From the NCBI GenBank assembly GCA_903904195.1, contig CAIVBM010000045.1, forward strand, positions 1-51,812: a DNA stretch of 51,812 bases, read 5' to 3'. The notes beneath the pieces are model-generated. The model saw only the letters and a program-made list of their open reading frames with translations, was not told where the DNA came from and did not search any database. Source of the DNA: an uncultured bacterium. GTDB taxonomy: Bacteria > Patescibacteriota > Minisyncoccia > Phycocordibacterales > UBA9973. This document shows, piece by piece, positions 5,502-30,063 of this stretch (position 1 is the first letter of the stretch; each line of letters opens with the position of its first letter). The position numbers and the translations under genes were made by a program.

Positions 5502-5693
5502 TTAGCGATAACCTAAACCCCAGAGGACGATGAGAACGATGATGAGAATAACGAGAGAAGTGTGCCAGATGTCCCAGTGAGCGTAGATATTTCTTTTCTT
5601 TAGAAAATTTGCAAACATCTCACTCCCCTCCAGAAGAATAAGGAAAGGTAGAATAGCTATTAGATACCAAATTTTGAAAATCAAATCAAACAT
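5502..5693 (-). CDS. Small two-TM membrane protein, hypothetical
   Basis: 63 aa with two hydrophobic helices. Tightly packed, 5 nt from the upstream ORF. Confidence 0.5.
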   Translation of the reverse strand: MFDLIFKIWYLIAILPFLILLEGSEMFANFLKKRNIYAHWDIWHTSLVILIIVLIVLWGLGYR

Positions 5694-17964: not shown

Positions 17965-18462
17965 TTACATCATTTTAATTTCACTTTTTTCATCAGGAAT
18001 CTCGACTATAACACATTCAAGCAATCTTTCTCCATTTTCTGAAAAAACAATTCTACCTTTAAATTTCTTACCTTCTATAATAAATGGCATAAATTTTTCA
18101 TCCCCAATTATCATTTCATGATATGGAATTTTATTTATATCAAATTCTTTAGGTTCCCCCATCTCTTCTGATTCTTTTGGTTTACCTGAAAATTCATCAA
18201 CTCTATACATATACACTTTCATATTCCGTTCTCCTTTGCCTTCAAATTCAAAATCAACAAAGCCTAATTCTTTACACTTCTCTAATTCAATAACAACTCC
18301 ACATTCTTCTTTAATTTCACGCACCAGACATTCTATTTTAGTTTCATTTTCTTCCACCACACCTCCATATCCATTCCACTTATCAACGCCAAACTTGCGC
18401 TTCTTTTTTGCGAGAATTATTTTCCCATTTTTAAATAAAAAACCCAAAGTACAAAGTATCAT
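17965..18462 (-). CDS. NUDIX hydrolase
   Basis: 165 aa with Nudix box GGVVEENETKIECLVREIKEECGV. Confidence 0.85.
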   Translation of the reverse strand: MILCTLGFLFKNGKIILAKKKRKFGVDKWNGYGGVVEENETKIECLVREIKEECGVVIELEKCKELGFVDFEFEGKGERNMKVYMYRVDEFSGKPKESEEMGEPKEFDINKIPYHEMIIGDEKFMPFIIEGKKFKGRIVFSENGERLLECVIVEIPDEKSEIKMM

Positions 18463-19775
18463 TAATTTATTTTCTCTTTAATGTAATTTCGTAAATCAGC
18501 TACTTTTACTCTTTCCTGTTTACCCGTATCTCTGTCGCGAACGGTCACAGAATTGTCGGTCAATGTATCAAAATCTACCACGATACAAAATGGTGTTCCT
18601 ATCTCATCTTGCCTACGATAGCGCTTGCCGATATTACCGTTATCATCCCATGCCACACGGCCAAATTCAGCTTTTAAAGGAGCGTAGACCTTTGTATTCG
18701 CATATTCTACAAGTTCTGGCTTATTCTTTAACAAAGGAGAAACAGCACATATTACAGGCGCGATAGATGGCTTAAATTTTAAGAATGAACGCACTTCACC
18801 TTCCTTTTCGTCTTCAGCATAAGCTGAAAGGAGTATTGCGAGAACTGCACGATCTACACCAAAAGTCGGCTCTATCACATGAGGTGTTATCTTTTTGCTT
18901 TCCTCTTCGTCCACATAATCTAATTCATGATTCTTTAAATCAAAATCCGTTCTATAAGCAATACCAAAAAGTTCTTTTTTACCAAAAGGAAAATCAAATT
19001 CAAAATCTACTGTCCGGCTGGAATAATGAGCTCTGTCTTCTTTTGGAACTTCAAGCTCATGAACTTTTGCCATATCTATCCCGACTTCTTCCATCCACTC
19101 CAACATTTCATCTTTCCAATATTCAAAATATTTTTCCCAATCTCCCTCCCTTGTAAAATATTCAATCTCCATTTGTTCAAACTCACGAGCCCTAAAAAGA
19201 AAGTCTCGTGGAGTTATCTCATTTCTAAATGCTTTTCCTATCTGCGCCATACCAAAAGGAAGCCTAGGATGGAAAGCATCAACAGTATTTTTAAAATTCA
19301 CAAACATACCTTGTGCAGTTTCTGGACGCAAATATGAAGTAGCGCTAGAATCATCTGATGCACCGACTTTGGTGGCAAACATCATGTTGAATTTCATAAC
19401 AGCACCTAATTTACCTCCGCAATCAGCGCATTTCTTGGTATCTTCAAGCTGGTCCGCGCGGAATTTCTTCTTGCATTTATCGCATTCCACCATCGGGTCC
19501 GCGAAACCAGCCACGTGTCCAGACTTTTGCCAGACTTCTTGGCGCATCAAAATCGCAGCATCAACTCCATACATATCACGGCGTCCATCCACAAACCTCT
19601 TCCACCAAGCTTGTTTGATATTATTCTTTAAAGCTACTCCAAAATGACCCCAGTCAAAAGTCCCCGCTAATCCCCCATAAATCTCAGAGCCTTGGAAAAT
19701 AAATCCGCGTCTCTTGCAAAGAGACACTATTTTCTCCATTAAATTATTCTCTTCTGTATTTTTTTCTTTTTTCAT
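18462..19775 (-). CDS. glyQS: Glycine--tRNA ligase (homodimeric class II type)
   Basis: 437 aa. Has IVSLCKRRGFIFQGSEIYGGLAGTFDWGHFG, FRNEITPR, and a C-terminal anticodon-binding region NGNIGKRYRRQDEIGTPFCIVVD. Confidence 0.93.
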   Translation of the reverse strand: MKKEKNTEENNLMEKIVSLCKRRGFIFQGSEIYGGLAGTFDWGHFGVALKNNIKQAWWKRFVDGRRDMYGVDAAILMRQEVWQKSGHVAGFADPMVECDKCKKKFRADQLEDTKKCADCGGKLGAVMKFNMMFATKVGASDDSSATSYLRPETAQGMFVNFKNTVDAFHPRLPFGMAQIGKAFRNEITPRDFLFRAREFEQMEIEYFTREGDWEKYFEYWKDEMLEWMEEVGIDMAKVHELEVPKEDRAHYSSRTVDFEFDFPFGKKELFGIAYRTDFDLKNHELDYVDEEESKKITPHVIEPTFGVDRAVLAILLSAYAEDEKEGEVRSFLKFKPSIAPVICAVSPLLKNKPELVEYANTKVYAPLKAEFGRVAWDDNGNIGKRYRRQDEIGTPFCIVVDFDTLTDNSVTVRDRDTGKQERVKVADLRNYIKEKIN

Positions 19776-22354: not shown

Positions 22355-22993
22355 TTAAAATTCTTCTTCTTTATTTTCTTCAAAATTTTTAAAAATAATT
22401 CCTACCTTGCTCAAAAATAATTCTGGAACCTTATAAAAACCACCAAAGTTTTTTAACATACCATCATGCACAGGAAAACAAAATTTTGGTTTTATTTTGA
22501 GTGCATATTTTGTAGCACTTCTAATATTGGCCCACGGACCAGCGACGGGTAAAGCCAAAATTTCAACCGGTTTTTTAGGATTATAAAAAGAATCTCCAGG
22601 ATAAAAAAATCTTTTATCTATAAAAAAAGCAGTGTTTTGAACCTGTAAATAATCTTTATAAATTTCTTCATGTTTGCAATCATGAGCCTCAATCTCTATA
22701 CCTAAAATCTTTTCTGCAACTTTATCATTTAAAACTTGATATTTGATTCCTGCTTCGTTTAATAACTTTCCTACCCCATTATTTGTAACTATTTTTGCGT
22801 CTGGATTATTTGCTAAAACTTTTTTCAAAGATTCAATATGTAAATGATCTCCGTGCTCATGAGTAATTAAAATTAAATCAATATTTTTTTCTTTTATTTG
22901 CTCTTCTACAGTATAAAAACCCGGATCAGTCATTATTTTTCTTCCGTTTGTCTCTATTATCAAACAACAATGACCCAATTTCTTTATTTTCAT
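22355..22993 (-). CDS. MBL-fold metallo-hydrolase
   Basis: 212 aa with LILITHEHGDHL (HxHxDH). Confidence 0.85.
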   Translation of the reverse strand: MKIKKLGHCCLIIETNGRKIMTDPGFYTVEEQIKEKNIDLILITHEHGDHLHIESLKKVLANNPDAKIVTNNGVGKLLNEAGIKYQVLNDKVAEKILGIEIEAHDCKHEEIYKDYLQVQNTAFFIDKRFFYPGDSFYNPKKPVEILALPVAGPWANIRSATKYALKIKPKFCFPVHDGMLKNFGGFYKVPELFLSKVGIIFKNFEENKEEEF

Positions 22994-23026: not shown

Positions 23027-26000
23027 TTATCTTTCAATTTTCACTTTAAATATCAAACTATCTATCTTTACTTCTGACCCATCATTTACTTTTAATTCTA
23101 TTTTTGAAGCAAGCGCAGTTTTTTTCATTTCAGATTCAAATTTTTGAATTAATTTCTTACCCGCATCATTAGTTTCAAACACAAGCGAGATAACATCACT
23201 AGGAGTCAATCCCATTTTCTTTCTCATATCCTGAATTGCGCGTAAAAGTTCACGATAATCCCCTTCTTGTTTTAATTCTGGAGTAATCTCTATATTAAGA
23301 TTTATCTCTGTTTCAAGATTTTTATTTTGTACTATTTCTTTTACGTTTAATTCATCTCTTATAAGCTCAATAAATTCTTTATCTAAGTTAAAATCTTTAA
23401 TTTCGAGTTTAGAAAGTGGTTGACGAACTTTCATGTTTGCTTTCTGACGAGCTTCGAGTCCCAGAGTAACCACCTCGCGAACTATTTTCATTTCTTTAAC
23501 AACTTCAGCATTTATTCTCTTTCCACTTGGCCATTGTGCTAGGTGCACACTTTCAACGTCATTTTCATTTTTCAATTTAAGCCATATATCTTCTGCTGTA
23601 AATGGAGAAAATGGAGCAAGTACTTTAGAAAGAGTCTTTAATACAAAATACAAAGTTACCTTTGCATCTTTATCACCATCCTTTATCCTCTCACGTGAAC
23701 GACGTAAATACCAAGTAGAAAGGTCACCAATAAAATCTCTCATTCCTCGCACCGGTTCAAGTAATTTATAACTATCAAGATTTTCTGTAGAAAGTTTTAC
23801 TAATTCTTCTAGTCTTGCCAAAATCCATTTATCAAGAATATTTTCAGACTTCACTTCATTATTTTTTTCTAAATCTTTATCTCTGTAGAGTTCATAGAAC
23901 GCAAGAACGTTGTAAAGCAAGCTAAAAATTTGCTGATGAAGTAACATAACTGTCTTCTCATCAAAATTCTTTGACTCTCCAGGCTGATTCACAGAATACA
24001 TCCACATACGAAGAGTATCCACGCCATACTTTTCCATCATTATCCATGGATCTACAACATTGCCTAGGGATTTTGACATCTTCTTCCCTTTCGCATCCAA
24101 CAAGTGACCAAGACAAATCACATTCTTGTAAGCTTTTCCACGTCCCATTAAAATTCCAATAGCATGCAGAGTATAAAACCAACCACGAGTCTGGTCTATC
24201 GCCTCACAAATAAAATCCGCTGGGTAGCCCTTGCCTTCTATCCATTTTCTATTCTCAAAAGGATAATGGTCCTGCGCAAATGGCATCGCTCCAGAATCCA
24301 ACCAGACATCCATGACTTCTTTTGTGCGTGTAAGTTTACCTCCACAGCTACAAAATAAAGAAACTTCATCAATATATGGCTTGTGTAAATCAAGCTCATA
24401 ATTTTCATTGTGAGGAATAGGGACAAAATCAAGTTTCTTAATTTCTGCGTTTTTTAAATAACCGGATTTAAATGAAGGACTTTTTAATTGTTCAAAAGTT
24501 AGACCATCAATGATAAATTTTAATGCTGCATATACTTCACAGTGCGAAACAATCAGGATGTTTTTATTTTCATACTTATTTTCAAGTTCATTTATAAAAT
24601 CACCTGCTCTTTTAATAATGTTCGCAAAATTTTCTCCGTCCGCGAATTTTCTAAGCGGATTATTAAAGAAATCCCCATCAAAACAAACCATTACATCTTT
24701 AACTTTTTTCCCATCAAATTCAGAACTTATATCCCATCCACCAATTTTGTCGTCAAAAATAATTTCATCCGAAGAAAATCCTAAAATCTTTGAGGCTATG
24801 GCTGATGTTTCCCTACCACGTTTAAATGGAGAAGAGATTATGATGTCGGGTTTTATTTTGAAAGAATTAATGGCAGTTTTAACTTCTTTTTTTCCTTTTT
24901 CCGTAAGAGAAGAATTTACGCTCGCCTTTTTATTCCAATCTGCATTTTCGTCTGTGACATTGTTGTCCGCCTGACCATGCCTCATTATAAAATATTTATT
25001 CCCAGACTTTTTGGTTTTCTCTTTCAGCTCCGAAATGCTTCCGATGACATCTACTTCCTTACAAGAATCGCAAATCCAGACTGGTAGCGGAGTTCCCCAA
25101 TATCGTTCTCGCGAAATCGCCCAATCTTTTATCTCTTTGAGCCATTCGCCGAAACGCCCTTCCTTTATATGAGCCGGCTCCCAATTTATTTTTTTGTTCT
25201 CGCTGATTAATTGCTTTTTTATTTTCGGTTCCGACATCCTGATATACCAAGAATCTCGCGCGTAATAGATGAGCGCGGTGTGGCAACGCCAGCAATGCGG
25301 ATACGAGTGCTGATAATTTTCTTTTTTAAAGAATAAATTTTTGTCTGTAAGATATTTTATAATATCAACGTCCAAAGTGGGCTTGCCGTCTTTGTCTTTT
25401 TCTTTTACAAATCGTCCTTCAAGAAATCCCGTGCCTTTTATGAATTTCCCTTCCAGATTCACCAGATGATGTTTCGGCAAACCAACCTTTGTTCCCAACA
25501 CGAAATCGTCTTGTCCATACATCACGGCAGTGTGCACGACACCTGTGCCGTCTTCCGTAGTCACAAAATCCGCGCCGTAAACTTTGTATGCTTTCTCCAT
25601 TTTTGATTTCTCCTTTTCTGAAATGGTTTCTGCCATATATGGGAAAAGCGGTTCGTATTCCAAGCCAATCAAATCTTTACCTTTCATTTCCTCGACAATT
25701 TCATACGGCTCGGTGATTACTGACAGCCTTGCCTTTGCGAGAATAAAAAATTCATTACCAGTTTTTATTTTTACATATTCTATTTTTTCTCCAACAGCTA
25801 AGGCGACATTTCCCGGCAATGTCCACGGCGTCGTCGTCCAAGCGAGAATATAAGTGTTGGCAAGAATGTGCTTTTGTCGGGGTGTCTCGCAGGCTGACGA
25901 GCCGAGAGGCAGCGCTCCGGAAGCATCCGGAGACAGCGACCCCGCAGAAGCAGCATTCTTGCTGACACTTACCTTAAACTTCACGTAAACCGACAAATCT

Positions 26001-26629
26001 TTCACGTCTTCGTACCCCTGCGCGAGCTCATGCGAGGAGAGAGCCGTTCCGCACCTCGGGCACCAAGGCACGACTTTGTAATCTTTGTATAATAATTTCT
26101 GCTCGTTTACGGTTTTTAAAACATTCCAAACGGATTCAATATAATCATTGTGATAAGTCACATACGGATTCTCCTGATCCACCCAATATCCGATACGCTT
26201 GGTGAATTTATTCCAGATATCCAAATATTCCCAGACGGACTCTTTGCATTCTTGATTAAATTTAGCGATGCCGTATTCTTCAATCGCTTTTTTGGAATTC
26301 AAGCCGAGCTTTTTCTCCACTTGGAGCTCCACAGGCAAGCCATGCGTGTCCCATCCGCCCTTTCGGCGCACATGAAAACCTTGCATCGTCTTGTATCGCG
26401 GAATTACGTCCTTGAAAGCTCGCGCCTCCAAGTGATGTATCCCCGGCTTGCCATTTGCCGTCGGCGGACCTTCGTAAAAAATATATTCCTTTTTCCTTGC
26501 CCGTCCTTTGGCGTGGCCCTCCGTCTGCTCCAGAGACTTTTCAAAAACTTTTTTTTCCTTCCAAAACTCCAAAACCCGCTCTTCGCGTAAAGCGGCATCG
26601 GATTTGAGATTTTTTTCTTTTTCAGCCAT
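23027..26629 (-). CDS. ileS: Isoleucine--tRNA ligase with an inserted histidine-phosphatase (PGAM-like) domain
   Basis: 1200 aa. Has PPTANGKPGIHH (HIGH), WTTTPWTLPGN (editing domain), KMSKSLGN (KMSKS) and the zinc knuckles WICDSC and CSCGG. A roughly 200-aa block carrying RHGQ...SSPFKRGRETS...VSHCE lies between the knuckles. Confidence 0.95.
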   Translation of the reverse strand: MAEKEKNLKSDAALREERVLEFWKEKKVFEKSLEQTEGHAKGRARKKEYIFYEGPPTANGKPGIHHLEARAFKDVIPRYKTMQGFHVRRKGGWDTHGLPVELQVEKKLGLNSKKAIEEYGIAKFNQECKESVWEYLDIWNKFTKRIGYWVDQENPYVTYHNDYIESVWNVLKTVNEQKLLYKDYKVVPWCPRCGTALSSHELAQGYEDVKDLSVYVKFKVSVSKNAASAGSLSPDASGALPLGSSACETPRQKHILANTYILAWTTTPWTLPGNVALAVGEKIEYVKIKTGNEFFILAKARLSVITEPYEIVEEMKGKDLIGLEYEPLFPYMAETISEKEKSKMEKAYKVYGADFVTTEDGTGVVHTAVMYGQDDFVLGTKVGLPKHHLVNLEGKFIKGTGFLEGRFVKEKDKDGKPTLDVDIIKYLTDKNLFFKKENYQHSYPHCWRCHTALIYYARDSWYIRMSEPKIKKQLISENKKINWEPAHIKEGRFGEWLKEIKDWAISRERYWGTPLPVWICDSCKEVDVIGSISELKEKTKKSGNKYFIMRHGQADNNVTDENADWNKKASVNSSLTEKGKKEVKTAINSFKIKPDIIISSPFKRGRETSAIASKILGFSSDEIIFDDKIGGWDISSEFDGKKVKDVMVCFDGDFFNNPLRKFADGENFANIIKRAGDFINELENKYENKNILIVSHCEVYAALKFIIDGLTFEQLKSPSFKSGYLKNAEIKKLDFVPIPHNENYELDLHKPYIDEVSLFCSCGGKLTRTKEVMDVWLDSGAMPFAQDHYPFENRKWIEGKGYPADFICEAIDQTRGWFYTLHAIGILMGRGKAYKNVICLGHLLDAKGKKMSKSLGNVVDPWIMMEKYGVDTLRMWMYSVNQPGESKNFDEKTVMLLHQQIFSLLYNVLAFYELYRDKDLEKNNEVKSENILDKWILARLEELVKLSTENLDSYKLLEPVRGMRDFIGDLSTWYLRRSRERIKDGDKDAKVTLYFVLKTLSKVLAPFSPFTAEDIWLKLKNENDVESVHLAQWPSGKRINAEVVKEMKIVREVVTLGLEARQKANMKVRQPLSKLEIKDFNLDKEFIELIRDELNVKEIVQNKNLETEINLNIEITPELKQEGDYRELLRAIQDMRKKMGLTPSDVISLVFETNDAGKKLIQKFESEMKKTALASKIELKVNDGSEVKIDSLIFKVKIER
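25876..25955. repeat. GC-rich in-frame insertion inside ileS, related to repeat family C
   Basis: gtcggggtgtctcgcaggctgacgagccgagaggcagcgctccggaagcatccggagacagcgaccccgcag. It shares the 17-mer aggctgacgagccgaga with 1319-1335 and contains the hairpin ctccgg-aagcat-ccggag. Translated as SAGSLSPDASGALPLGSSACETP. Confidence 0.5.
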
Positions 26630-26674
26630 TATTTGCTGATTTTAGCATAGAATCTATATTTTGACACCTAATAC

Positions 26675-26709
26675 TGAAAGCGGGCTCCGGACAAAAGTCC
26701 GAAGCCCGC
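26675..26709 (-). terminator. Terminator hairpin after the GC-rich 126-aa ORF
   Basis: On the minus strand gcgggcttcggac-tttt-gtccggagcccgc (13-bp stem with one mismatch or wobble) is followed by tttcag. Confidence 0.55.
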
Positions 26710-26722
26710 ACCGCAAGATACA

Positions 26723-27103
26723 TCACCCGCTTCCGCAACAAAACCGAATGGATCGAACCAACTCATCTATATTTCCAGGCACGATTCTGTCCGTAATGAT
26801 CGTCCGATATCGGTCAGGCTTCATATCAACCCGCGACCCGACCAAACGAATTCCGCTTTCGGTCTTCGGACGGACAAAATCCCGAACGAAATCCATTCCG
26901 CCTCGGCTCTTCAGCCAAAAATAGACAGGATCTGGATCTTCGGATTCTATCAACACCTGACACTTCAAGAACACTCGGCAGACCAGAGTCAGGTCACGAA
27001 ATGAGGCAAACCACGTCGGCGGACTTATCAGCTGGTCTTGTATCAGAAGTTTCGGCTCGTGGGTGGAAAGAACTAACTGACTGGTGGGCATTAAGTTATA
27101 CAT
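26723..27103 (-). CDS. Hypothetical protein in a GC-rich island
   Basis: 126 aa. Preceded by a canonical AAGGAG 6 nt upstream of the ATG, which the neighbouring housekeeping genes lack. Visibly higher GC than its surroundings. No family recognised. Confidence 0.6.
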   Translation of the reverse strand: MYNLMPTSQLVLSTHEPKLLIQDQLISPPTWFASFRDLTLVCRVFLKCQVLIESEDPDPVYFWLKSRGGMDFVRDFVRPKTESGIRLVGSRVDMKPDRYRTIITDRIVPGNIDELVRSIRFCCGSG

Positions 27104-27185
27104 TGTCGTCTCCTTGGTTGCTTATTCCCGTTTAGGCGTTTGTTGCTTCTTCGTTTTTGAATACTAGACTTAATCGCTAAAAATG

Positions 27186-27217
27186 CAAGGAGCCTAGCAA
27201 GGACGGTCCTTGCTAGC
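27186..27217 (-). terminator. Hairpin downstream of argS
   Basis: ctagcaaggac-g-gtccttgctag palindrome directly after the argS stop. There is no clean T-run, so function is uncertain. Confidence 0.35.
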
Positions 27218-27223
27218 TCACTT

Positions 27224-28939
27224 TTACATCCTCTCCGGTGACTCAATACCAAGGAGATGCAGACCTGTTTTCATTACGAAGGAAAAGGCGAAAGTCAGAG
27301 CCACTTTGTAGGCGGAAGATTTATCTTCTTTTTTCACAATCAAATTGTTACCGTAAAAGCTGTTGAAGGCGCGAGCGACTTCTATTAAATAGCTCGCAAT
27401 ATAATGCGGTTCATATTCTTGACCTGAACGCAAGACAATTTCCGGAAATTTATATAACAATCTTTCCACTTCAAAAATTTCTGACGGAAAAGCATGCGGA
27501 TCCGGTAAAATGTTTTCCTTTTTCGCTTTTTCCAAAACTGAATTTGCTCGAGCGAAAGAATATTGCAAATATGGACCAGAATCCCCTTCGGTAGAGATGG
27601 ATTCTTCCACATTGTAAACGATGTCACTGCCGGATGAAGAACGAAGAATAGAATATTTTATCGCTGACACACCCACCATTTGCGCAACTTTTGCTTTCTC
27701 TTCCTCATCCCATTCCCGCCCAGACATCTTGTCGTCTATGAGAGCGATGGTGTCACGAATGAGAGACTCCCCAGTAATCACATTGCCCTTACGAGAACCC
27801 ATTTTGCCTGAAGCTAAACGCATCATACCGTGAGTGATGTGGAGCATCTTTTTTGCATGTTCAGGATAAATAATAGAAATAGCTTTAGTAACAACTTTCA
27901 TATAATCCGCCTGTTCATTTGCAGTGACGACGATAGACAAATCCATATCTGGATCTGTTTTAAATTTCTCTTCGGCAAGTCCGAGTTCTTTTGCCTCATA
28001 TGTAGGCAATCCTTCTTTGGTAATGAAAACTCTAGTGTGAAGCTTTGAATCATGCTTTTCAGCTTTAAATACAATGGCCCCATCGGATTCTTCAAAAACT
28101 TTACCCATATTATCTTTCACAATATCTCTGCCGATATCTGCCATAGCTGATTCCAAGAAATAGAAATCAAATTTTGTACCAAGAATTTTATACAAGTCTT
28201 CAAATGCATCCATCGTCACCTTGAAACCCCAATCATATATGTCATTTATTTTCTTATCACTTTTTTTGTAAACTTTTTTATTTATTTCATCTATTTCTTT
28301 TTTTGCTTTAGCATCACTTTCATAAGTCTCACTACCCTGCACATAAGCAAGGCCTATATTTCTGGCCTGAAATGCACTAGAACTAGTTTTTTCCTGCAAT
28401 TTTTCATCCTGCAAAAGTCCCCAAATAGCTTTCGCCACATGAAGTCCTACGTCACCCTGATAATTTGCTCGAGAAACATCTGCACCTCCATGTTCTAAAA
28501 TCCTAGCCACTGATTCACCAATCGCATTTGTCATCAAATGACCTATATGAAATGGTTTGAAAGGATTTGGGTCAGTATATTCAACCATTATTTTCTTGCC
28601 AGATAAAATTTTATTTTTACCGACATTTTCTCCATCATTTAAAATTTCTTCTACGCTTCGGCCAAAAAATTTACGAGATAAGTAAAAATTTATAAAGCCT
28701 GCACCGGCAACTTCTACTTTTTCTATATTATTATCCAAATTTAATCTAGATATTTGTTCAACTATCTTTTTTGCTAAATCTTTTGGATTATTTTTCACAC
28801 TTTTTGCGACAGCCATCGCCACATTTGTGGAATAATCTCCATTTTTAAAATCCTCCGGATGTTCCAATGCAATATCACCCACTTCTATCTCTAAATTCTT
28901 TAACACATCTTTTATCAATTTTTTAATTTCTTTTTGCAT
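27224..28939 (-). CDS. argS: Arginine--tRNA ligase
   Basis: Has PNPFKPFHIGHLMTNAIGE (HIGH) and ends with the typical ...GIESPERM. The start is placed at the second Met (ATG at 28939), which abuts the dut stop. The track ORF extends to 28978. Confidence 0.93.
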   Translation of the reverse strand: MQKEIKKLIKDVLKNLEIEVGDIALEHPEDFKNGDYSTNVAMAVAKSVKNNPKDLAKKIVEQISRLNLDNNIEKVEVAGAGFINFYLSRKFFGRSVEEILNDGENVGKNKILSGKKIMVEYTDPNPFKPFHIGHLMTNAIGESVARILEHGGADVSRANYQGDVGLHVAKAIWGLLQDEKLQEKTSSSAFQARNIGLAYVQGSETYESDAKAKKEIDEINKKVYKKSDKKINDIYDWGFKVTMDAFEDLYKILGTKFDFYFLESAMADIGRDIVKDNMGKVFEESDGAIVFKAEKHDSKLHTRVFITKEGLPTYEAKELGLAEEKFKTDPDMDLSIVVTANEQADYMKVVTKAISIIYPEHAKKMLHITHGMMRLASGKMGSRKGNVITGESLIRDTIALIDDKMSGREWDEEEKAKVAQMVGVSAIKYSILRSSSGSDIVYNVEESISTEGDSGPYLQYSFARANSVLEKAKKENILPDPHAFPSEIFEVERLLYKFPEIVLRSGQEYEPHYIASYLIEVARAFNSFYGNNLIVKKEDKSSAYKVALTFAFSFVMKTGLHLLGIESPERM

Positions 28940-28940
28940 A

Positions 28941-29363
28941 TTATTTTTTCCCTGTGCTTCCAAAACTTCCCTCACCACGCGCAGACTCGCTTAACTCTTT
29001 TACTTCTTTTAATTTTGCGATAACCATAGGAATAATCACAAGCTGGGAAACTTTATCACCCTCTTCAAAAGTATAACTCTTGTCTGATAAATTTACTAAA
29101 TGCGTATTGTATTCCCCCCGATAGCCAGGGTCAAAAACCCCACCCATTGTACGCAATCCTGCCTTGGAAATACTGCTTTTATCCATAACAATGGCTCCAT
29201 ACCCATTAGAAAATTCAAGAGCAAAACCATGCCAAATACGACAATGCTCGCCAGGTTTTATTGTTACCGTTTCCATCGCATACATATCCATACCCACATC
29301 CCCGAGATGATGATATTTTGGCAACTTTGCTTTTTCTTTTAATTTTTTAACTTTAATTATCAT
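28941..29363 (-). CDS. dut: dUTP diphosphatase (dUTPase family)
   Basis: 140 aa. Has GDVGMDMYA and GVFDPGYRGE motifs typical of trimeric dUTPases. Confidence 0.85.
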   Translation of the reverse strand: MIIKVKKLKEKAKLPKYHHLGDVGMDMYAMETVTIKPGEHCRIWHGFALEFSNGYGAIVMDKSSISKAGLRTMGGVFDPGYRGEYNTHLVNLSDKSYTFEEGDKVSQLVIIPMVIAKLKEVKELSESARGEGSFGSTGKK

Positions 29364-29370
29364 AAAAGGA

Positions 29371-30063
29371 TTATTTCAAAACTTTTTTAATTTCTTTATA
29401 AATTTCTGTATGAATATTTTCGCGAGTATCGAGTTTACCACCCTTTGTACACTCTATCTTTATCCATCCTCTTTGTGTTTTTGCCAACCAAAGCGCACTT
29501 TTTCTAGAATTTTCAAGAAATTTTTTATCTTTCTCATGTACATCCTGCTTTTTGCCCAGATACGCTCTATTGTTTTTTTTATTTCTTTCACGGATAAGCT
29601 TCAGAACTATGGGAATGGGAACATTCAAATAAAAAACCGCGTCCGGTTTCGGGATTTTAAAAACTTCATATTCCATCTCCGCCAGCCACTTGAGGAAACT
29701 TTCTCTTTTTTTTGTATTCGCGATTTTTCCGCCCTGATGTATCTGATTCGCGCTCGCATATCTGTCCGCAATTACTATATTCCCGTCGGAGAGCCATTTT
29801 TTAATCTTATCTTTGGATTCAAAACGATCGGCAGCATAAAGGACGGAGGCGATTTTCGGATGGATTTTCACGAAATTATAATATTGCTCGGAAAGGCAGT
29901 GGCCGATAAATTTGCCGAAGAAATTAGAATAATATTCCGGAAAATTAACCACCTTCACTTTTCTTCCGTCCTTTTTCAGATGTTTAATTAAAAGACCCGC
30001 CTGCGTCGCCTTTCCGCTACTGTCCGTGCCATCTATCACAATGAGTTTGCCTCGTTTAGCCAT
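29371..30063 (-). CDS. tmk: Thymidylate kinase-like
   Basis: 230 aa. P-loop is IVIDGTDSSGKATQ, followed by DRYASAN. Adjacent to dut. Confidence 0.8.
   Translation of the reverse strand: MAKRGKLIVIDGTDSSGKATQAGLLIKHLKKDGRKVKVVNFPEYYSNFFGKFIGHCLSEQYYNFVKIHPKIASVLYAADRFESKDKIKKWLSDGNIVIADRYASANQIHQGGKIANTKKRESFLKWLAEMEYEVFKIPKPDAVFYLNVPIPIVLKLIRERNKKNNRAYLGKKQDVHEKDKKFLENSRKSALWLAKTQRGWIKIECTKGGKLDTRENIHTEIYKEIKKVLK

Follow-up and report, generated by a model that had tools for sequence, protein, structure and literature searches.

A histidine-phosphatase domain nested in the catalytic core of a Patescibacteria isoleucyl-tRNA synthetase

Why should a phosphatase be built into the catalytic core of an enzyme that charges tRNA? 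The question is raised by ileS, the gene for isoleucyl-tRNA synthetase (IleRS), in a 51,812-nucleotide stretch of DNA from an uncultured bacterium of the Patescibacteriota (GenBank assembly GCA_903904195.1, contig CAIVBM010000045.1), which we refer to as the window. A reading of the letters alone, here called the original prediction, proposed that the enzyme carries an inserted histidine-phosphatase domain of about 200 residues. Our analysis leaves little doubt that the window's ileS encodes the housekeeping, IleRS2-type enzyme of a Paceibacteria/Nomurabacteria-like bacterium, with a PhoE/PspA-type phosphatase nested in the zinc-knuckle loop of subdomain CP3. It is the sole visible IleRS copy and is presumably essential. 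What the nested domain does is a harder question, and we weigh several answers below.

The gene occupies 23027..26629 of the minus strand, to which all coordinates within ileS refer, as one uninterrupted open reading frame (ORF) of 1200 aa, just as had been predicted. Its product scores 888.3 bits against TIGR00392, the IleRS equivalog model (cutoff 621.4), in two stretches with the insert between them. Pfam places tRNA-synt_1 in two halves, Anticodon_1 and DUF5915 (PF19302, E=8e-17) on the protein, with His_Phos_1 nested within, and the presence of DUF5915, the type-2 C-terminal domain, identifies the enzyme as IleRS2-like. The closest PDB matches are 1ILE (T. thermophilus IleRS) and 8C8U (P. 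megaterium IleRS2); MupA and MupB are the next-best NCBIfam matches and fall under their exception cutoffs. With IleRS2 the protein shares the Rossmann fold, the CP1 editing domain, CP2, the four-cysteine zinc knuckle of CP3, the anticodon-binding domain, DUF5915 and KMSKS. It is 64-71% identical to the IleRSs of Patescibacteria that are its 120 best homologues, and these, aligned together with the window protein, give the set of 121 sequences used for conservation throughout, alongside a second set of 80 independent species-representative loci.

The hallmark motifs of the enzyme had been described as intact, and most of them are. The KMSKS loop (24068..24082, aa 850-854) is present in 121/121 aligned IleRSs, and in the editing-domain motif WTTTPW (25823..25840, aa 264-269) columns W264, T265, T266, T267 and W269 are invariant among the 121. 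All four cysteines of the CP3 zinc knuckle are present and bracket the insert: C520-x-x-C523 (25061..25072) lies directly before it and C760-x-C762 (24344..24352) directly after it, and in the 1ILE alignment they correspond to C461/C464 and C502/C504 of T. thermophilus IleRS, the zinc-binding motif of CP3 (PMC7191050). CP3 itself comes directly after the CP2-CP3 linker, 'IKDWAISRERYWG' (25094..25132, aa 500-512), about 30 residues ahead of the insert; in yeast IleRS this linker ('...DW.ISR.RYWG') lines the pocket for tRNA A76 and reveromycin (PMC7955072). The claim of an intact HIGH needs qualifying, because the class I signature (26432..26443, aa 63-66) reads G63-I-H-H, the non-canonical G/AXHH form, in place of HxGH. 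The window enzyme resembles in this respect the hyper-mupirocin-resistant subclass of IleRS2, in which the G/AXHH signature has been described as functional and tied to mupirocin hyper-resistance (PMC10485003). Among the 121 homologues the signature is GIHH in 102, VLHT in 10 and GTHH in 4, the rest being ALHH, GVHH and PLHS. The VLHT and PLHS variants fall outside even the G/AXHH pattern and may merit attention.

Where does the foreign domain begin and end? In the alignment to 1ILE, residues 432-482 match up to 'ELKEKTKK' and the match resumes at residue 488 from 'LDLHKPY', so that about 204 residues of the window protein stand in the place of about 5 in 1ILE, which is what sets it apart from other IleRS2 enzymes. 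Insert-less IleRSs that close the loop at '...ELEKLS|DLHKHF' support this boundary. The domain with its linkers thus covers aa ~542-745 (24395..25006), in agreement with the coordinates first proposed (24410-25010) and with the two motifs said to flank the insertion. The core, aa 547-720 (24470..24991), matches Pfam PF00300 at E=6.3e-19 and 68.8 bits (gathering score 21.7), which confirms that the histidine-phosphatase domain is nested in a full-length IleRS. Modelling by AlphaFold2 (AF2) had been suggested as a check for an independent lobe. The insert-only model has a predicted local distance difference test score (pLDDT) of 88.7 and a predicted template modelling score (pTM) of 0.87, and on this model the nested domain is predicted to fold independently. 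Foldseek matches the model with probability 1.0 and a template modelling score (TM) of 0.71 to both 4ij5 and 1h2e, and it superposes at TM ~0.7 on PspA (4IJ5), GpgP (4PZ9), PhoE (1H2E), CobC and the riboflavin-pathway HFP (9MMH). The full-length AF2 model is poor because its alignment is shallow and holds close relatives only; its pTM is 0.52, the pLDDT of the Rossmann core lies below 50, and its inter-domain geometry is unusable.

Fold and motifs place the insert in branch 1 of the histidine phosphatase superfamily, close to PspA, PhoE, GpgP (Rv2419c), CobC and HFP, with which it shares size, the family-level pattern RHG...R...E...H and the 'GES' and 'SSP..R..T' motifs. The insert reaches no curated NCBIfam cutoff (PspA 41 bits versus 350, CobC 40 versus 163, SixA 22 versus 74.5), and neither do its free-standing relatives, so substrate specificity cannot be carried over from any of these families. 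A cofactor-dependent phosphoglycerate mutase (dPGM) can be set aside: the insert scores 42.6 bits against the 225 required by NF038349 and 18 against the 316 of a second model, the residues after the catalytic Glu read E-[WLF]-x-x-G in the family and not the mutase-type E-R-x-Y, the fold is nearer to the short phosphatase-type members (TM ~0.71) than to dPGMs (TMq 0.61-0.68, root-mean-square deviation 5-9 Å), and the longer dPGM architecture is not matched. We also considered an intein or other self-splicing in-frame element, because the insertion hits a conserved site of an essential gene and its junction residues are S542 and H740-N741. We rejected it: the fold is His_Phos and not HINT, the residue after HN is Glu (PHNENY), where an intein would have a Cys, Ser or Thr nucleophile, and there are no flanking repeats.

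The original prediction raised a chimeric assembly junction as grounds for doubt and argued that the gene is not a pseudogene. The PF00300 insert is present in 120/120 best homologues of the window IleRS. Their source assemblies (JGI, ENA, NCBI and Logan) are separate and bear the names Nomurabacteria, Paceibacteria, Parcubacteria or Minisyncoccia. A pattern scan over one genome per GTDB species found the insert together with its junction motifs in at least 587 Patescibacteria genomes, one of the matches being a single-amplified genome, and the exact window protein is on record on 5 contigs. An artefact that joins two genes, or a decaying gene, is for practical purposes excluded by this recurrence and by the intact ORF. 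A survey of domain architectures, as had been proposed, therefore yields a plain answer: the nested form is the standard IleRS of a large clade of Patescibacteria and is not rare. The original prediction knew of no described IleRS of this architecture, and we found none in the literature that we searched; the proteins are public and Pfam-annotated, under the NCBI name 'class I tRNA ligase family protein' only.

Three observations on individual loci belong here. Locus L012 (3536-6055) encodes a divergent IleRS, ~45-50% identical to that of the window, with the phosphatase at the same site; of the four CP3 zinc-knuckle cysteines none is left ('WISD-SH', 'VDESGEE'), and the signature is the canonical HYGH. 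Since it has the nested architecture without either feature, neither zinc binding nor the GXHH signature is required for that architecture. Second, ileS looks split in L012, L026 and L038; in L012 the cause is a masked run of N and not biology. In the syntenic locus L001 (ENA ERZ1286166 contig_1231), argS, ileS and their neighbours are chopped into many ORFs of 50-150 aa, and the phosphatase part stands on its own as P0001, a 'protein' of 150 aa; the likeliest cause is an indel-rich assembly and not true gene fission.

To trace the origin of the domain, we compared an insert profile with 1.84 billion representatives and obtained 332 proteins at E<=1e-30. A word-indexed homology search with the insert alone had given only 3 weak matches, because the insert diverges too fast to share 5-mers, and it was the full-length and profile searches that resolved its relatives. 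The top profile matches include complete free-standing proteins of 189-210 aa (160-180 bits) without IleRS junction motifs. In three of the five that we examined (P0229, P0255 and P0240), the free-standing phosphatase gene is the immediate 5' neighbour of an ileS that lacks the insert (931-984 aa); the phosphatase of L082 stops at 5570 and ileS starts at 5572. The remaining two lie near recO (P0264) and next to proS (P0207). Gene order in the split loci is argS-hisPhos-ileS-...-recO, the same synteny as in the window. Comparison of these sequences indicates that the nested domain either derives from a free-standing phosphatase gene of ~190 codons or has a common ancestor with it. A pair of genes that are adjacent in some lineages and fused in others is a Rosetta-stone relationship, and it speaks strongly for a joint function of phosphatase and synthetase.

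Nesting has taken place at more than one position. Mapping of domains and motifs on the representative matches gave three sites, all in the second half of the Rossmann domain. Site A, that of the window, lies between WG.P.P/CxxC and D.W.DSG, and P0227, P0250 and P0257 each have two copies in tandem there. Site B, from D.W.DSG to DQxRGWF, is occupied by copy 2 of P0170 and by copy 1 of P0200 and P0213. Site C follows KMSKS, ahead of the anticodon-binding domain, and is occupied by copy 2 of P0200, P0213, P0221 and P0265. P0200 and P0213 have no copy at site A, and one IleRS, P0124, contains four phosphatase copies. The form with copies at B and C is represented by six distinct sequences on contigs of up to 1.06 Mb, and its precomputed architecture reads tRNA-synt_1/His_Phos_1/tRNA-synt_1/His_Phos_1/Anticodon_1/DUF5915; on the longest of these contigs (P0200/P0397, L094 6001-10260) the gene context is a different one, with adenylosuccinate synthase, DAHP synthase and an SLH protein. 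At least 9 contigs carry the tandem form. Between P0227 and P0250 its copies pair off as orthologues (52% and 45% identity), yet within one protein the two are only 22-27% identical, which argues that the multi-copy IleRSs are old, maintained architectures. Eight catalytic and core columns read R-H-N-R-E-E-R-H in nearly all copies of the multi-copy enzymes, the exceptions being copy 3 of P0124, with Ala at the Asn column, and copy 1 of P0170, with Gln at the E666 and R674 columns. Taken together, the sequences point to an association of phosphatase and IleRS that is old and under selection. Pairwise identities among the copies at sites A, B and C all come to ~30-40% and do not distinguish independent capture from intragenic duplication.

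If the domain is maintained, is it maintained as an enzyme? Across the 121 aligned IleRSs the insert is the fastest-evolving stretch, with a mean identity to its relatives of 36% as against ~81% for the flanking Rossmann segments. Within it, R550, H551, G552, S600, R604, R674 and H696 are found in 121/121, N557 in 119, T608 in 120, Glu at column 631 in 118 and E666 in 117. The 80 species loci give the same picture: R550, H551, N557, S600, R604, E666, R674, H696 and the Glu at column 631 are present in 80/80, G552 in 78 and T608 in 72. This pattern indicates that purifying selection acts on the catalytic constellation of the nested phosphatase. In the window copy the RHG motif (R550-H551-G552) lies at 24974..24982, with H551 the predicted phospho-acceptor; R604, the second Arg of the phosphate pocket (SSPFKRGRETS), at 24818..24820; and H696, the second catalytic His (LIVSHCE), at 24542..24544.

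The window copy itself is an exception. The original prediction credited it with the full catalytic signature, and RHG, R604 and H696 are indeed present, but the general acid/base Glu is replaced by Gly (G631, codon GGA, 24737..24739). Histidine phosphatases use a Glu as general acid/base, E83 in PhoE and E89 in dPGM. Both the PspA alignment and the family motif L-x-E-x3-G-x-[FW]-[ED]-G assign this position to column 631. Gly occurs there only in the window copy and in P0005, a relative from another assembly, and represents a lineage-specific loss. Neighbouring positions of the acid loop have drifted as well, with K628 for R and S635 for G, while the phosphate pocket of R550, H551, R604 and H696 is kept. 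Loss of the Glu together with this drift makes impairment likely, and the phosphatase of the window's sub-lineage is probably slow, inactive or able only to bind phosphate.

A second phosphohydrolase has joined IleRS in some relatives. Seven of the 121 homologues (P0027, P0031, P0044, P0082, P0113, P0116 and P0119; ~1330 aa) carry a C-terminal fusion to a generic HD domain (PF01966), which seems to stand in for the last ~50-75 residues of DUF5915. A free-standing counterpart of ~213 aa is abundant in the clade; its gene is immediately 3' of ileS in L090 (6001-6642), and L092 and L093 (5393-6642) have the order ileS-HAD-HD. The IleRS-linked HD domain matches generic HD models only, and no HD homologue was found in the window. 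In related loci the slot between ileS and recO is a variable cassette of small hydrolases of the HD, HAD, metallo-beta-lactamase (MBL) and PNPOx-like kinds. The window's own slot holds an MBL-fold hydrolase gene (Lactamase_B_3, UPF0173-like; 22355..22993, minus strand) that starts 34 bp past the ileS stop and closely resembles its positional counterpart in L012. We rejected this gene as a conserved partner in function, since only 9/71 related loci have it.

What could such a domain act on? The original prediction put forward a phosphorylated nucleotide by-product, an alarmone or a phosphorylated partner, and each of these may be the substrate. We hypothesize, tentatively, and in part by analogy with other enzymes of the tRNA 3' end, that the nested phosphatase heals a phosphate-blocked 2'/3' end of tRNA-Ile. 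The domain would act in cis as a phosphomonoesterase whose substrate is offered by IleRS and not selected by its own cap. The preferred substrate would be tRNA-Ile ending in a 3'-phosphate, or in what remains once a 2',3'-cyclic phosphate or a 3'-pyrophosphate has been opened. The CCA end, which is flexible, would swing into the pocket of the phosphatase in much the same manner as into the CP1 editing site; H551 would accept the phosphate, held by R550, R604 and H696, while Glu631 would protonate the leaving 2'/3'-oxygen, and the healed tRNA-Ile could then be aminoacylated. Where it is present, the HD partner would provide a diesterase or pyrophosphatase step. Extended to the clade, this gives a possible but somewhat more doubtful general statement, namely that many Patescibacteria IleRSs have, beside the sites for synthesis and editing, a third catalytic site, helped by HD in some lineages, that checks how the CCA end of tRNA-Ile is phosphorylated and heals it before charging, its targets being 3'-phosphate, cyclic-phosphate and toxin-added pyrophosphate ends.

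The following evidence leads us to this proposal. The cap (aa 641-664) has no residue that is at least 70% conserved in 131 inserted copies, and the insertion point in CP3 is next to the linker of the A76 pocket; together these favour a substrate presented by IleRS. A tRNA 3' end is favoured because nesting of the phosphatase has occurred in three loops that surround the A76 pocket and KMSKS, where an N-terminal fusion would have been easy, because an HD hydrolase has been co-recruited, and because CP1 and HD domains provide precedents at the CCA end. The mobile CCA end is what CP1 works on; in the E. coli CCA-adding enzyme, 2',3'-cyclic phosphodiesterase and phosphatase activities reside in the HD domain; and HD-type hydrolases undo the 3'-pyrophosphorylation of tRNA by RelA/SpoT-homologue toxins.

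Several findings weigh against tRNA-end healing. The closest characterised relatives (PspA, PhoE, GpgP, CobC and the riboflavin-pathway HFP) all act on small molecules, and the cap, though its residues vary, keeps a length of ~32 aa, as a small-molecule site would. With a mean net charge of -0.4 the inserts are close to neutral and give no electrostatic hint of RNA binding; the basic surface that we looked for as such a sign was not seen. Genes of nucleotide metabolism lie nearby (tmk, dUTPase, Nudix and HAD, counting the window and related loci), there is no evident reason why tRNA-Ile in particular should need end repair, and the full-length model, on which the proposed geometry would be judged, has a poorly modelled Rossmann core (pTM 0.52). 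Finally, the window copy lacks the acid/base Glu, and its gene has evidently been retained.

Much of this would fit a tethered small-molecule phosphatase, an explanation that we consider nearly as likely as tRNA-end healing. Here the domain would dephosphorylate a nucleotide or metabolite (AMP released by IleRS, 2'/3'-nucleoside monophosphates or deoxynucleoside monophosphates) in salvage or pool housekeeping, the fusion serving co-expression or local product removal with no action on tRNA. Support comes from the nearest solved and curated relatives, which are phosphatases of small molecules, from the constant cap length and neutral charge, and from a neighbourhood rich in nucleotide enzymes (tmk, with dUTPase, Nudix, HAD and YfbR-like HD in related loci). 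Beyond the phosphate pocket, however, the domain has no conserved specificity residues, and co-expression would favour an end-to-end fusion, given the order hisPhos-then-ileS, whereas the domain is nested in three loops of the catalytic domain and in up to four copies. Destruction of AMP would also seem to bring no obvious benefit to an organism that depends on salvage. The substrate could instead be a protein: the phosphatase might strip an inhibitory phosphate from IleRS, such as one placed by a Hip-type kinase toxin near the KMSKS/ATP site, or from a partner. HipA and HipT kinases inactivate class I aminoacyl-tRNA synthetases (aaRSs) by phosphorylation, and PGAM5, Sts-1 and SixA are protein phosphatases of the histidine-phosphatase superfamily. 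To these precedents can be added that the insertion sites all cluster in the second Rossmann half around KMSKS and that an unconserved cap is compatible with a macromolecular substrate. We nevertheless judge it quite improbable: the SixA-type score is 22 bits against a cutoff of 74.5, no kinase or toxin gene is evident beside ileS in the window or related loci, and a PADLOC search for defence systems returned no meaningful match for the insert, the HD domain, the MBL-fold protein or the free-standing phosphatase.

The G631 copy brings up a further reading, in which the module is not catalytic and acts as a structural spacer or as a phosphate-binding affinity element for the tRNA 5'-phosphate or backbone, at least in the window's lineage. 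The window copy and P0005 have lost the Glu and kept the R-H-R-H phosphate pocket, their acid loop has drifted (K628 for R, S635 for G), and multiplication of copies is typical of binding modules. Against this, the catalytic set is kept in 118/121 relatives, in 80/80 species loci and in nearly all copies of the multi-copy enzymes despite ~35% identity, which would be difficult to account for if catalysis did not matter, and net charge is near zero. For the family we regard a non-catalytic role as unlikely; it deserves a higher weight for the G631 lineage. By far the least probable is that the insert is an assembly chimera, a pseudogene or an accidentally fused glycolytic phosphoglycerate mutase. 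In favour of the last is that archaeal dPGM is the best sub-threshold NCBIfam match of the free-standing relatives, at 102 bits versus 225, but dPGM cutoffs are not reached, the catalytic Glu is followed by [WLF]-x-x-G and the fold is closer to short phosphatases, while the hundreds of independent assemblies, the single-amplified genome and the intact ORF speak against all three. Healing of the tRNA-Ile end stays our working hypothesis, held tentatively, and we assign part of the probability to none of these readings.

Each component of the window enzyme has known counterparts, and the differences from these are instructive. Phosphatases of the PspA/PhoE type act as free proteins in metabolic pathways, whereas here an aaRS houses the domain or shares an operon with it; the insert family also differs in its unconserved cap, and the window copy in its missing Glu. 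The CP1 editing domain of class Ia aaRSs is likewise a hydrolytic domain inserted in a loop of the Rossmann-fold catalytic domain, in this same enzyme, and it sets a precedent: a second active site to which the mobile CCA end of tRNA is brought. CP1 hydrolyses the ester of mis-acylated tRNA with an unrelated fold and is universal, while the insert is predicted to hydrolyse phosphomonoesters, is restricted to a clade and is placed elsewhere (CP3, the post-DSG loop and the post-KMSKS loop). The HD domain of CCA-adding enzymes and the HD small alarmone hydrolases offer the likeness of phosphohydrolases that accompany enzymes of the tRNA 3' end and restore its 3'-OH; they belong to another superfamily than the His_Phos insert, and the roles of the IleRS-linked HD and His_Phos domains are predicted ones. 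IleRS also tolerates another catalytic addition, an N-acetyltransferase domain in NF040702 ('ileS_w_GNAT'). That accessory domain is a different one, and the window protein, at 304 bits against a cutoff of 1999, is not a member.

Full-text searches of the literature that paired IleRS or aaRS with histidine phosphatase or with Patescibacteria terms returned no description of the architecture, and a text search found no mention of it in the 2023 paper on IleRS phylogeny and structure (PMC10485003) or in a 2026 preprint on IleRS evolution. Known parts are here joined in a combination that is undescribed and evidently selected.

The remainder of the window provides the setting for ileS. A class II aaRS (tRNA-synt_2b, HGTP_anticodon) is encoded at 18462..19775, argS at 27224..28978 and thymidylate kinase (tmk) at 29371..30063, and near ileS are large surface proteins (DUF11, Ig-like, PG-binding) that are typical of Patescibacteria. 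No tRNA genes or Rfam features were found in the 51.8-kb window. Between the argS stop and the ileS start is a gap of 594 bp (26630..27223) with a GC content of ~0.50 in a genome of ~0.33, at the position that the free-standing phosphatase gene takes in the split lineages; a search for a decayed phosphatase gene with hmmsearch --max was negative, and this origin was rejected. The corresponding gap in L012 is just 32 bp. DNA similarity of the gap to other loci is limited to two short matches (31-37 nt) at its ileS-proximal end, in L004 and L030. Its minus-strand RNA folds better than 100/100 shuffles (z = -3.5), and a strong GC hairpin at 26674..26709 ends it, ~45-80 nt upstream of the ileS start. 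The gap may be a structured leader or attenuator, or a non-coding RNA of unknown kind; it gave no T-box-like leader or Rfam match, at gathering score or at E<=1.

A second GC-rich element lies within ileS itself. At 25860..25965 (minus strand; IleRS aa ~222-257), just ahead of WTTTPW, is an in-frame block '...SAGSLSPDASGALPLGSSACETPRQKHI...' with a GC content of 0.57-0.59 against ~0.33 locally. It forms a long near-perfect hairpin with terminal inverted repeats GCAAGAATG...CATTCTTGC (dG -53.6 kcal/mol, z = -5.5, 0/200 shuffles as stable). The block is kept as protein in about one third of the 121 homologues and is absent elsewhere, including from the close relative P0005, and no second copy was found in the window. 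It looks like an in-frame palindromic insertion reminiscent of the Rickettsia palindromic elements.

Few enzymes are as well studied as the aaRSs, whose accessory editing domains are textbook examples. In IleRS a hydrolytic domain of a second kind has settled in the core, conserved with its active site intact over hundreds of species, built in at three loops, present in up to four copies and matched by a split-gene arrangement; in comparative genomics this is a strong signal of an uncharacterised functional partnership. The finding matters for annotation too, given the name under which NCBI lists these proteins. The natural Glu-to-Gly variant of the window offers a ready-made comparison. If the substrate proves to be a nucleotide, the architecture would mean that ultra-reduced symbionts bolt metabolism onto their translation machinery. 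If it is a tRNA end, these enzymes would add a new quality-control or repair step to translation, and healing of the CCA end would amount to a tRNA-repair or anti-toxin function built into an aaRS.

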